Shown piece after piece: positions 1 through 1,429 of a stretch of DNA of 28,100 nucleotides (positions are counted from its first letter, which is position 1; the number at the start of each line of letters is the position of its first letter). Under the pieces are notes generated by a model that was not told the origin of the DNA, made no database searches, and saw only the letters and a program-made list of their open reading frames with translations. Made by a program: the position numbers and the translations under genes. This DNA comes from Anaerolineae bacterium (GTDB lineage Bacteria > Chloroflexota > Anaerolineae > Epilineales > Epilineaceae): NCBI GenBank assembly GCA_046259645.1, contig JBJYWW010000218.1, forward strand, positions 1 to 28,100. Direction: 5' to 3'.

Positions 1-1429
1 GCTTCCACTCCAGCAGCCAGCGCTCGTAGGGGAGCGGCCGGAGTCCGTCTGGCGGCTCGAGCGCAGCGGCCGGGACCGCGGCGTCGAACCAGTCGCGCGC
101 CAGGCCAAGCGCGATCCAGGCGCGCCTGTCAAGGCCGGAGCGACTCGCGTCAGCTGCAAACAGTCGCCAGTTGACGGAGCCGCCGAGGACTCGCAGCTCC
201 TCCGCGATGTCCGAGACTACCCTCGTCGGCGCGAAGCCGCGCCTGATGCTGTTGGCGACGAGGCAGGTCAGCAGATCGGTCGGCTCCGGCACCAGCATCA
301 GCCGGTCCGCCGCTGGCCGGGCGCGACCCCAGATGGCCTGCCAGTCCAGTCCGAGCGCTTGCCAATGGCCGCCGCCATGCCGGGCGATGTCCATGTCGTG
401 ATGCGCGGCGCCATCGAGCTCCACGTGCAGCGCGTCGGGCTCACGGCGCGTCGGGTACCGCGCGGCCAGCGGCTGGCGGATGTGCGCCACCAGCCGCTCC
501 GCCTCGTGGCGGCGATCGTCCGGCACGCTGAGATCGATGTCGCCGGCCAGCCTCAACGCCGGATCGGCGAACACCAGCGCGTTGAGCGCCACGGCCTTGT
601 GGCCCAGCACAGGGATCCCGGCATCGGCCAGCTCGCGCAGGACGTCCTGCAGCACCGCAGCCGTCCGGTTCGCTCGCGCCAGGCTCCCCACATACAGCCG
701 ACGCAGGTCGTCCATCGCCTGTCGCGGCACTGCTGCGTCAGCACCGAGAGCCAGGACCCCGGCGAATAGGAGCGGACCGAGCTGGCCGGCGCGCGCGGCG
801 GCCACCACGGTCCCCCACTCTAGTCCCGCGTCGAGCAGCCTCGCTGCACGCGACACCGCGCCCTCGTCGTGGGCGCCGCGCGCCGCGAGCAGCACGAACC
901 GCTCCTCCGGCGTGAGCGGGCGCAGCGGTCCGATGCCCGTCTGCGCGACCCGCGCGCCGAGCAGCGCGGCGCGCTGCACCGCGGCCGGGCGCGGCAGCGA
1001 GCCGACCCGCCCCTGCAACCGGGCATAGGCCGCGGTCGCGACGCCGAGCACCTTGGCCGGGCTCTGGTCAAGCCGCCGACCGTCGAAGCCCTCCACCGCG
1101 ATGACGCGCCCCAGCACGCTATCCACGGCGACGGGACCGTCGGGCGACACGCTGTTGTCTCCGCGGAGCACGACGTGCTCGGCGTCCCGGGACACAACCC
1201 GATGCACCATCAACCGGTCACCCACCTGCGCAACCGCGATGTCGCCGACGCGGACGTCAGTGCCGGCGCGCACGCGCACCAAGTCGCCGTCATCGAGCGC
1301 CGGTCGCATGCTGCCTCCTTGAACCGGCAGCCGAACCACGTCGCGCGAGGCGGCTAGCAGCCGCAGTGCGGCGGGCACGTCTACGATGGGATCGGCCAGG
1401 CGGCTAGCCGCCTTCCTCGGCGCCGGCAC
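1..1429 (-). CDS. S24/S26-family serine peptidase domain fused to an NTP_transf_5-like nucleotidyltransferase (3' end truncated by window edge; start uncertain, 1378-1477)
   Basis: Not in the ORF track. I translated it manually and found no stop from 1429 to base 2. The N-terminal domain has VQGGSMRPALDDGD (Ser 1312-1310), LMVHRV (His 1204-1202) and LRGDN (1162-1154). The C-terminal domain has GIPVLGHKAVAL, DPALRLAGDIDL (approx. 560-527), HVELD and LVPEPTDLLTCLVAN, typical of the uncharacterised Pol-beta-fold NTase family. Confidence 0.85.
   Translation of the reverse strand, partial: MPAPRKAASRLADPIVDVPAALRLLAASRDVVRLPVQGGSMRPALDDGDLVRVRAGTDVRVGDIAVAQVGDRLMVHRVVSRDAEHVVLRGDNSVSPDGPVAVDSVLGRVIAVEGFDGRRLDQSPAKVLGVATAAYARLQGRVGSLPRPAAVQRAALLGARVAQTGIGPLRPLTPEERFVLLAARGAHDEGAVSRAARLLDAGLEWGTVVAAARAGQLGPLLFAGVLALGADAAVPRQAMDDLRRLYVGSLARANRTAAVLQDVLRELADAGIPVLGHKAVALNALVFADPALRLAGDIDLSVPDDRRHEAERLVAHIRQPLAARYPTRREPDALHVELDGAAHHDMDIARHGGGHWQALGLDWQAIWGRARPAADRLMLVPEPTDLLTCLVANSIRRGFAPTRVVSDIAEELRVLGGSVNWRLFAADASRSGLDRRAWIALGLARDWFDAAVPAAALEPPDGLRPLPYERWLLEWK

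Follow-up and report, generated by a model that had tools for sequence, protein, structure and literature searches.

An HprK-like kinase and a fused peptidase-nucleotidyltransferase in a Chloroflexota genome: a probable bifunctional enzyme of ribosomal-peptide maturation

What does a protein do that joins a serine peptidase and a nucleotidyltransferase in a single chain? The question is raised by the first 28.1 kb of contig JBJYWW010000218.1 (C218), the whole 28,100-nucleotide stretch being called 'the window' below. It belongs to a metagenome-assembled genome (MAG) of an Anaerolineae bacterium, phylum Chloroflexota (GCA_046259645.1; 2.4 Mb, 77% complete, 70% GC). At the very start of this contig lies an open reading frame (ORF), P0001, that encodes such a fusion, and directly upstream of it a gene for an HprK-like kinase. 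The kinase and the fusion appear to be co-transcribed and are probably translationally coupled. In our judgement it is probable that the fusion unites counterparts of LppS and LppN, next to a homologue of LppK (all three from the LPP pathway, introduced below), and that it is a bifunctional enzyme of ribosomal-peptide maturation in a Chloroflexota MAG. The two genes, and the parts of the fusion, are as follows.

2 to 1510, minus strand: fused peptidase-nucleotidyltransferase ORF P0001, 503 amino acids as read, free of stop codons up to the first base of the contig
1091 to 1369, minus strand: SipW/Sec11-like (clan SF) peptidase domain, residues 48-140, from matches to PF00717, TIGR02228 and SEC11A/C
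914 to 1090, minus strand: two-helix C-terminal extension of the peptidase module, residues 141-199, from an AlphaFold2 (AF2) model, conserved columns and hydropathy
2 to 913, minus strand (Pfam core 83 to 823): NTP_transf_5 module, residues 200-503, from PF14907, Foldseek and conserved residues
1404 to 2762, minus strand: gene for an HprK-like P-loop kinase of 452 amino acids, directly upstream of the fusion and overlapping its 5' end

A preliminary description of the locus, made from the sequence alone, had reported one uninterrupted frame joining both domains. This is confirmed by the stop-free ORF, by a codon-position GC that keeps a single pattern from position 1 to about 1450, including the junction at 900-1050, and by colinear orthologues. 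The start proposed at that time, GTG 1429, is one option: the longest form begins at ATG 1510, which entails a 107-nucleotide overlap with the upstream gene, and GTG 1378 is a third candidate. In homologues of P0001 only some 15-40 residues precede the catalytic Ser. The true start is uncertain, GTG 1429 and GTG 1378 both being possible. At the other end, about 36 C-terminal codons are lost, judging from P0002, a 99% identical protein of a near-identical assembly. The contig breaks inside the fusion gene in both near-identical assemblies, about 36 codons before the stop in C218 and at codon 225 in L004; a local assembly difficulty, for example paralogous transferase genes or extreme GC, may be the cause.

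Such breaks invite the suspicion that two adjacent genes were joined by a sequencing error or in a chimeric contig. The gene sits at the end of a MAG contig, the near-identical assembly also breaks in it, and in one relative (L005) the two halves lie in different frames. The same architecture, however, is found in at least seven independent assemblies of close relatives, where the orthologues are colinear at 46-51% identity and have invariant residues in the linker as well as in each domain, and it recurs in dozens of distant clusters. Together with the continuous codon-position GC, and with an AF2 model of good quality over the whole chain (pLDDT 81, pTM 0.80; residues 1-44 disordered), this makes an assembly or gene-calling artefact extremely unlikely. 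In L005 (7917-9474, on a long contig of 602 kb), a frameshift near 8460-8510 separates the halves of the orthologous fusion. Gene calling retained only a 305-residue transferase (P0009), and prolonged the Peptidase_C25 gene that precedes it, out of frame, into the part encoding the peptidase. The cause is either decay to a pseudogene or an indel error in long reads.

Both domains are assigned by hidden Markov models, each above its Pfam cut-off, as the preliminary description had proposed. Peptidase_S24 (PF00717) matches residues 48-137 (E = 4.3e-12; 46.2 bits, the cut-off being 23.3). The peptidase motifs are GGSMRP with Ser67 (1312-1310), VHR with His103 (1204-1202) and GDN with Asp118 (1159-1157), and among 29 diverse fusions residues G65, S67, M68, H103, R104, G117 and D118 are invariant in all 29. 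The label S24/S26, given earlier, holds as far as the Pfam match goes, but the closest relatives are Sec11 and SipW (S26B, with Ser-His-Asp) and not the LexA-type S24 peptidases. The best NCBIfam model is TIGR02228 (archaeal-type signal peptidase I), with a score below threshold (36.9 against 51.85 bits), and the best sequence match in the PDB is human SEC11A/C (E = 4e-10), with GSMxP, VHRV and GDN of P0001 aligned to the catalytic Ser, His and Asp (Ser56, His96 and Asp116 of SEC11A). P0001 thus shares with SipW, Sec11 and archaeal signal peptidase I (MEROPS S26B) the pattern GxSMxP...HR...GDN and the fold class. Three things set it apart from them: no membrane anchor at either terminus, a score that falls short of the TIGR02228 cut-off, and the fusion to an enzyme of cytoplasmic type. 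Absence of a transmembrane anchor, already noted in the preliminary description, agrees with a hydropathy scan, where neither the N-terminus nor the linker, in P0001 and in most homologues, has a 19-residue Kyte-Doolittle window above about 1.6. A membrane anchor hidden in the linker was considered and ruled out, since hydropathy is too low. The fused peptidase is predicted to be cytoplasmic and soluble.

The Pfam assignment nevertheless suggests another function, that of a self-cleaving switch of the LexA/UmuD kind, in which the S24-type domain, with no substrate other than the chain it belongs to, would cleave that chain and so switch on the nucleotidyltransferase or set it free. The top Foldseek matches of the first domain point the same way, with LexA, lambda cI and UmuD' folds next to that of SpsB, and P0001 does share the Pfam family and the beta-barrel fold with LexA, UmuD and lambda cI. 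Its catalytic residues do not: P0001 has Ser-His(-Asp) in place of the Ser-Lys dyad, His103 being the general base in 29 of 29 aligned fusions. The cleavage-site region is missing as well, with no conserved Ala-Gly or Cys-Gly some 35 residues before the Ser, which is preceded by about 15-40 poorly conserved residues. The genomic logic also differs, as stand-alone homologues lie in clusters with PqqD and a precursor. Self-cleavage is, on these grounds, very unlikely.

The two domains had been described as separated by a linker of about 60 residues. The stretch exists, but it really consists of two helices that belong to the peptidase module. In the AF2 model, a beta-barrel peptidase domain is followed by two helices predicted with confidence (150-169 and 176-189, pLDDT about 82-88), and these by a helical-plus-nucleotidyltransferase domain; T159 and PRP173-175 are conserved within the extension. 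Stand-alone peptidase homologues of other Chloroflexota also carry both helices, their matches extending to model positions of about 150-190, so that the fusion amounts simply to two complete modules placed head to tail.

The second module matches NTP_transf_5 (PF14907) over residues 230-476, with 3-249 of the 249 profile positions covered (E = 1.8e-25; 90.4 bits, the cut-off being 31.2); a profile search of the genome locates it at C218:83-823. Its motifs are HKAVAL with Lys305 (598-596) and GDIDL with Asp324 (541-539) and Asp326 (535-533). P262, K305, D324, D326 and W448 are invariant in all 29 diverse fusions, and K305, D324 and D326 are near-invariant among 146 NTP_transf_5 sequences. All the motifs listed in the preliminary description are thus present in both domains, with their key residues invariant across the fused homologues. 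Foldseek relates the second domain to the nucleotidyltransferases ANT(2'')-Ia and MenT. Judged by their residues, both domains of P0001 look catalytically competent.

No neighbour tells more about the fusion than the HprK-like kinase gene overlapping its 5' end, which the preliminary description had left out. The kinase matches TIGR04352 HprK_rel_A (E = 1.7e-14) and PF07475 (E = 1.5e-3), both below the curated cut-offs. It has a Walker A motif, GGSGAGKTT, with Lys141 (2342-2340), and a Ser157-Asp158-Asp159 site (2294-2286). Identity with the kinase of a PqqD-kinase-peptidase cluster in genome G367 is 28% (E = 2e-20); with ScmC, the P-loop region alone is shared (E = 3e-5). The C-terminal third of the kinase (window 1404-1900) extends about 150 residues beyond relatives of 300 amino acids, is rich in Ala, Gly and Arg, and has no domain match. 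The arrangement of the pair is conserved. An HprK-like gene overlaps the start of the fusion by 4-8 nucleotides in L003 and in the contig of P0004, and lies directly upstream of it in L007. The contig of P0006 holds a partial upstream gene, of unknown family, with a 4-nucleotide overlap. Beyond the pair, the flanks differ in every relative.

How widespread is the fusion? An exhaustive HMMER search of 1.84 billion representatives yielded 6,600 relatives, whereas a search with a 29-sequence profile recovered the close family alone, a word-index limit. Among 157 non-redundant representatives with a complete NTP_transf_5 domain, the peptidase was in front in 53 and behind in 1. Fused forms occur in Chloroflexota, Thermodesulfobacteriota and Omnitrophota, the distant members in the latter two phyla being labelled 'signal peptidase I' at NCBI; the closest relatives with a fused gene are Anaerolineae/Anaerolineales MAGs. 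In a transferase-domain tree, 24 changes are required to account for the fused state, at least 8 of them fusions or fissions forced by well-supported branches, and P0001 falls in a fused clade of 18 rows (SH-aLRT support 100). This tree was a quick one with many weak branches, and its 'N-only' labels may include truncated gene calls (P0009, for instance, is a frameshifted fusion). Other arrangements were also met: a triple fusion of kinase, peptidase and transferase (P0014, 867 residues, two cluster members), the reversed order transferase-peptidase (P0083), and peptidase-GNAT-transferase (P0062, for example). In the Pfam tally, NTP_transf_5 is also fused to Transglut_core3 and to PqqD. From these sequence comparisons, we conclude that the fused architecture is genuine, old, recurrent and common in databases.

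Of 401 sampled Chloroflexota genomes, only the MAG studied here has the fused form, and in at least 12 the halves are separate genes on one contig, 0.6-30 kb apart. The earlier statement that the two families are usually separate neighbouring genes is consistent with this, and with the LPP clusters of Bacillota, where they are also kept apart. As to whether the architecture was already common and characterised, a point raised in the preliminary description, common it is, with 53 of 157 representatives fused as above; in the literature, we found no paper that characterises the fused peptidase-NTP_transf_5 form.

The closest known system is the pathway of linear polyphosphorylated peptides (LPPs), which Paenibacillus alginolyticus encodes in its lppA-K-B-S-D-N cluster (Popov et al., Nat Commun, May 2026; PMC13381572). 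Its core consists of SpI (TIGR02228), a discrete RRE, or recognition element for RiPPs (peptides made on the ribosome and modified after translation), of the PqqD type, an HprK-like kinase, an NTP_transf_5 protein and an MsbA-like exporter; the supplement of that paper names the components TIGR02228, PqqD and NTP_transf_5 (PMC13381572). LppK polyphosphorylates a Ser, and LppS, which is inactivated by S29A, H68A or D93A, cuts off the leader only if this is presented by the RRE (PMC13381572). The window has a TIGR02228-like peptidase with Ser-His-Asp, an HprK-like kinase gene, and an NTP_transf_5 domain of the same Pfam family as in LPP. The two systems are also alike in having no lasso cyclase, in the presence of a lasso-like cluster elsewhere in the same genome, and in the occurrence of relatives beside polysaccharide genes. 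They differ in that peptidase and transferase are one polypeptide here and separate genes in Bacillota LPP clusters, and in that no discrete RRE, MsbA-like exporter or precursor with the YxxPxVLxHQxIxFETxxS leader lies near the fusion. LPPs are stated to be restricted to Bacillota (PMC13381572), whereas the present host belongs to the Chloroflexota (Anaerolineae-like), and cassettes of other phyla add radical SAM proteins and C25/S8 peptidases.

Phosphorylated and phosphoglycosylated lasso peptides (paeninodin with PadeK, pseudomycoidin with PsmK and PsmN) offer a second comparison. PsmK phosphorylates the C-terminal Ser; PsmN, which was modelled on ANT(2'')-Ia and is inactive as D134A/D136A, adds a hexose to the phosphate (PMC6993621). 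An HprK-like kinase and an ANT(2'')-like D-x-D transferase are common to both systems, and in some lasso clusters the transferase is fused to the leader protease B2 (PMC8498205). The fused protease is there a transglutaminase-like Cys protease, in contrast to the Ser/His peptidase of P0001, and neither a macrolactam cyclase nor B2 is adjacent to the fusion. A B2 fragment, a PqqD protein and a second transferase are found on another contig of the same MAG, C146:

8660 to 10464, minus strand (L014, G000 contig C146, at the contig end): lasso-like set of a C-terminal Transglut_core3 (B2-type) fragment, a 117-residue PqqD protein and a 413-residue stand-alone NTP_transf_5 protein

The next gene after this set encodes an unrelated proline dehydrogenase, and no lasso cyclase (Asn_synthase, PF00733) was matched in the assembled 77% of the genome. 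LPP clusters have been reported to co-occur with lasso clusters, to lie in capsule loci and to have an undefined product (PMC13381572); the lasso-like set of C146 matches this co-occurrence within genomes.

The domain identities, residue conservation, synteny and recurrence of the fusion suit the following scheme, whose chemistry is borrowed from homologous enzymes. The kinase, in which the P-loop and a Ser-Asp-Asp metal site are present, would phosphorylate or polyphosphorylate a Ser of a leader-bearing precursor. Going by LppS and LppB, the peptidase domain would cut off the leader, the precursor probably being presented by a PqqD-type protein. The transferase domain may decorate the phosphate, either with a hexose, in the manner of PsmN, or with a nucleotide. 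The fusion would tether this tailoring step to leader cleavage, in a module that here consists of the kinase and the fusion only. Several ties between peptidase and transferase favour the scheme (the reversed and the GNAT-bearing chains, the repeated fusions or fissions, the split genes that cluster with PqqD, and the fused genes of L052 and L053), though they are partly interdependent. The preliminary description had taken the fusion as Rosetta-stone evidence that proteolysis and nucleotidyl transfer act on the same substrate; the idea fits both the LPP and the phosphorylated lasso pathways, but is already largely explained by the publication of May 2026.

More complete cassettes were found in other genomes. 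All five Chloroflexota genomes examined have a PqqD gene clustered with the split peptidase and transferase. The gene content of four clusters is given here.

Cluster of G367: PqqD, kinase, peptidase, ABC ATPase, ABC-2 permease, transferase
Cluster of G077: radical SAM, peptidase, PqqD, transferase, ABC exporter
Cluster of G061: PqqD, peptidase, radical SAM, ABC exporter, transferase
Cluster of G184: peptidase, then PqqD, radical SAM, small ORF, ScmC-like, C25 peptidase, transferase

P0047 and P0187, two distant fused proteins (L052, L053), each have PqqD, radical SAM and ScmC genes next to their own, together with the gene of a giant S8 peptidase, which in L052 includes a C25 domain. In these and two related loci, a family of candidate precursors lies between the radical SAM and the ScmC/HprK-like genes:

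L053, 9244 to 9414, plus strand: precursor of 56 residues
L052, about 2342 to 2520, minus strand
L050, about 4030 to 4210, plus strand
L051, 6811 to 6969, plus strand

The N-terminus of these peptides is basic, the leader is of the form [YW]-x-K-P-x-L with EE-x-VLG-x-C, and the core is Cys-rich, with three Cys in L051-L053 and more in L050; three of the four end in Ser. In L052 and L053, the leader reads Y-x-K-P-x-L-R-[VI]-I-E-L-A-A-E-E-V-L-G-V-G-C, and the peptide has three Cys and Ser as its last residue. G061 and G184 encode similar peptides, which end in Ser and Ser-Gln, respectively. All four cassettes also hold PqqD, an S24-like peptidase and NTP_transf_5, the latter two fused in L052 and L053, and three of them a large C25/S8 peptidase. 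They resemble SynChlorMet-type radical SAM cassettes, in that the distant fused homologues stand beside PqqD, radical SAM, ScmC and a Cys-rich precursor; from the window, by contrast, radical SAM, PqqD and precursor are all absent. Wzy_C, glycosyltransferase and fucose-pyrophosphorylase/GHMP-kinase genes adjoin the cassettes at L048 (G367:C1) 9346-12976 and at L052 11838-19649, which recalls the capsule loci where LPP clusters of Bacilli are reported to lie.

Should the target of the module be sought at the cell surface rather than in a small exported RiPP? The module might modify a protein or some component of the cell surface; for example, proteins that are secreted or surface-exposed could be processed and phospho-glycosylated or nucleotidylated by it, together with large C25/S8 peptidases or polysaccharide machinery. 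Giant S8/C25 peptidases are indeed present in related cassettes (L052, L053, L051, L005), which may also lie beside Wzy_C, glycosyltransferase and sugar-nucleotide genes (L048, L052). The situation of LPP clusters within capsule loci, and their undefined product (PMC13381572), are compatible with such a target, as is the fact that no small precursor was found in the assembled genome. Complete neighbourhoods, however, contain the gene of a short leader-bearing Cys-rich peptide as well as PqqD, and the sole homologous sets tested by experiment act on peptides. A surface target is in our view rather unlikely.

Several observations weigh against a role of the fusion in peptide maturation. No gene for a PqqD/RRE, an ABC exporter or a precursor was found in the window or beside the close orthologues. 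The sole PqqD match in the MAG is that of C146, in a different cluster, and the annotated ORFs of the window include no ABC transporter, hence no MsbA-like exporter. A peptide with the LPP leader (YxxPxVLxHQxIxFETxxS) or with the Y-x-K-P-x-L leader was not detected in the assembled 77% of the genome; the scan covered six-frame ORFs with three regular expressions and a hidden Markov model built from the L052 and L053 peptides, and returned only junk that looked out of frame. The matches of the peptidase to TIGR02228 and of the kinase to HprK-type models lie, as mentioned, below the cut-offs. Deletion of lppN had no visible effect in the heterologous system, no activity of LppN is known (PMC13381572), and the chemistry of PsmN was shown in E. 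coli cells only (PMC6993621). Finally, the module is absent from two genomes of the same family (G386 and G290), which have only a distant stand-alone transferase, so that its distribution is patchy. Unless they are missing altogether, the genes for precursor, recognition protein and exporter must lie elsewhere. A precursor gene adjoining the module was considered and rejected: there is no space upstream of the kinase, whose start overlaps the preceding gene, and only 72 nucleotides downstream in the near-identical genome. Listing of small ORFs in L003 and L008 was uninformative at 70% GC.

With two of the usual five or six genes present, here and in close relatives, the pair could be an orphan remnant, decaying or functionless, of a larger cluster whose other genes were lost. 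The patchy distribution and the frameshifted fusion of L005 would agree with decay. Yet the catalytic residues of all three enzymes are intact, and the kinase-fusion pair, with its overlapping frames, has been kept across 46-51% identity, which argues for purifying selection on the pair. We hold a remnant to be quite unlikely. The Chloroflexota module is best read as a reduced variant of an LPP-like maturation set, without RRE and without exporter.

A bolder version of this is that the kinase and the fusion form a self-sufficient minimal module, with no dedicated RRE or exporter, that acts in trans on precursors encoded elsewhere, for example in the C146 cluster. We consider this a doubtful proposition. 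If it were true, tethering would couple phosphate decoration obligatorily to leader removal, and this would explain the silence of LppN when expressed as a free protein. Together with the radical SAM cassettes, whose Cys-rich precursors mostly end in Ser, the module would then define a class of phospho-decorated peptides that spans phyla beyond Bacillota.

Upstream of the kinase, the window holds the following features.

2759 to 4210, minus strand: cN-II-type 5'-nucleotidase (HAD), first gene of the apparent operon (PF05761, E = 8.8e-141)
4211 to 4455, no strand: divergent intergenic region, between the operon and the plus-strand gene at 4456-5355
4456 to 5355, plus strand: APH/choline-kinase-like phosphotransferase gene, divergent from the operon (PF01636, E = 1.9e-14)

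The TGA stop of the nucleotidase lies within the GTG start of the kinase (GTGA, a 4-nucleotide overlap at 2759-2762), which suggests translational coupling of the two. This overlap might be taken to indicate an operon of nucleotide metabolism or signalling, in which nucleotidase, kinase and transferase would act on nucleotides under the regulation of the peptidase. The nucleotidase is, however, absent upstream of the pair in all four relatives examined, and its linkage is lineage-specific; all conserved partners of the kinase-fusion pair are of RiPP type. Enzymes of the cN-II type are, besides, ordinary housekeeping phosphatases. A nucleotide operon thus appears highly improbable. In the divergent region 4211-4455, a scan for promoter and terminator consensus sequences was empty: no sigma-70 consensus promoter was seen, and no convincing small ORF. 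A role in anti-phage defence was also considered and set aside, as PADLOC gave no match for the nucleotidase, the kinase or the fusion. In L003, a 180-residue secreted protein, rich in Thr and Pro and ending in ...RLYLPHVV..., is encoded at 7637-8179, upstream of the orthologous pair.

Returning to the reading that we prefer, of a fused LppS-LppN enzyme acting next to an LppK homologue, its main bearing is on the role of NTP_transf_5 in the LPP pathway. Time and again this transferase has become joined to a leader protease, of one or other of two unrelated folds (the Cys protease B2 and the SipW-like Ser peptidase), in both orders and sometimes with the kinase as well. The pattern suggests that it acts in a complex with leader cleavage, on precursor held by the RRE. 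Attempts to reconstitute the missing LppN activity could profit from a soluble enzyme that is fused by nature. The locus also adds evidence that an LPP-type toolkit exists beyond Bacillota, where it is often combined with radical SAM chemistry.

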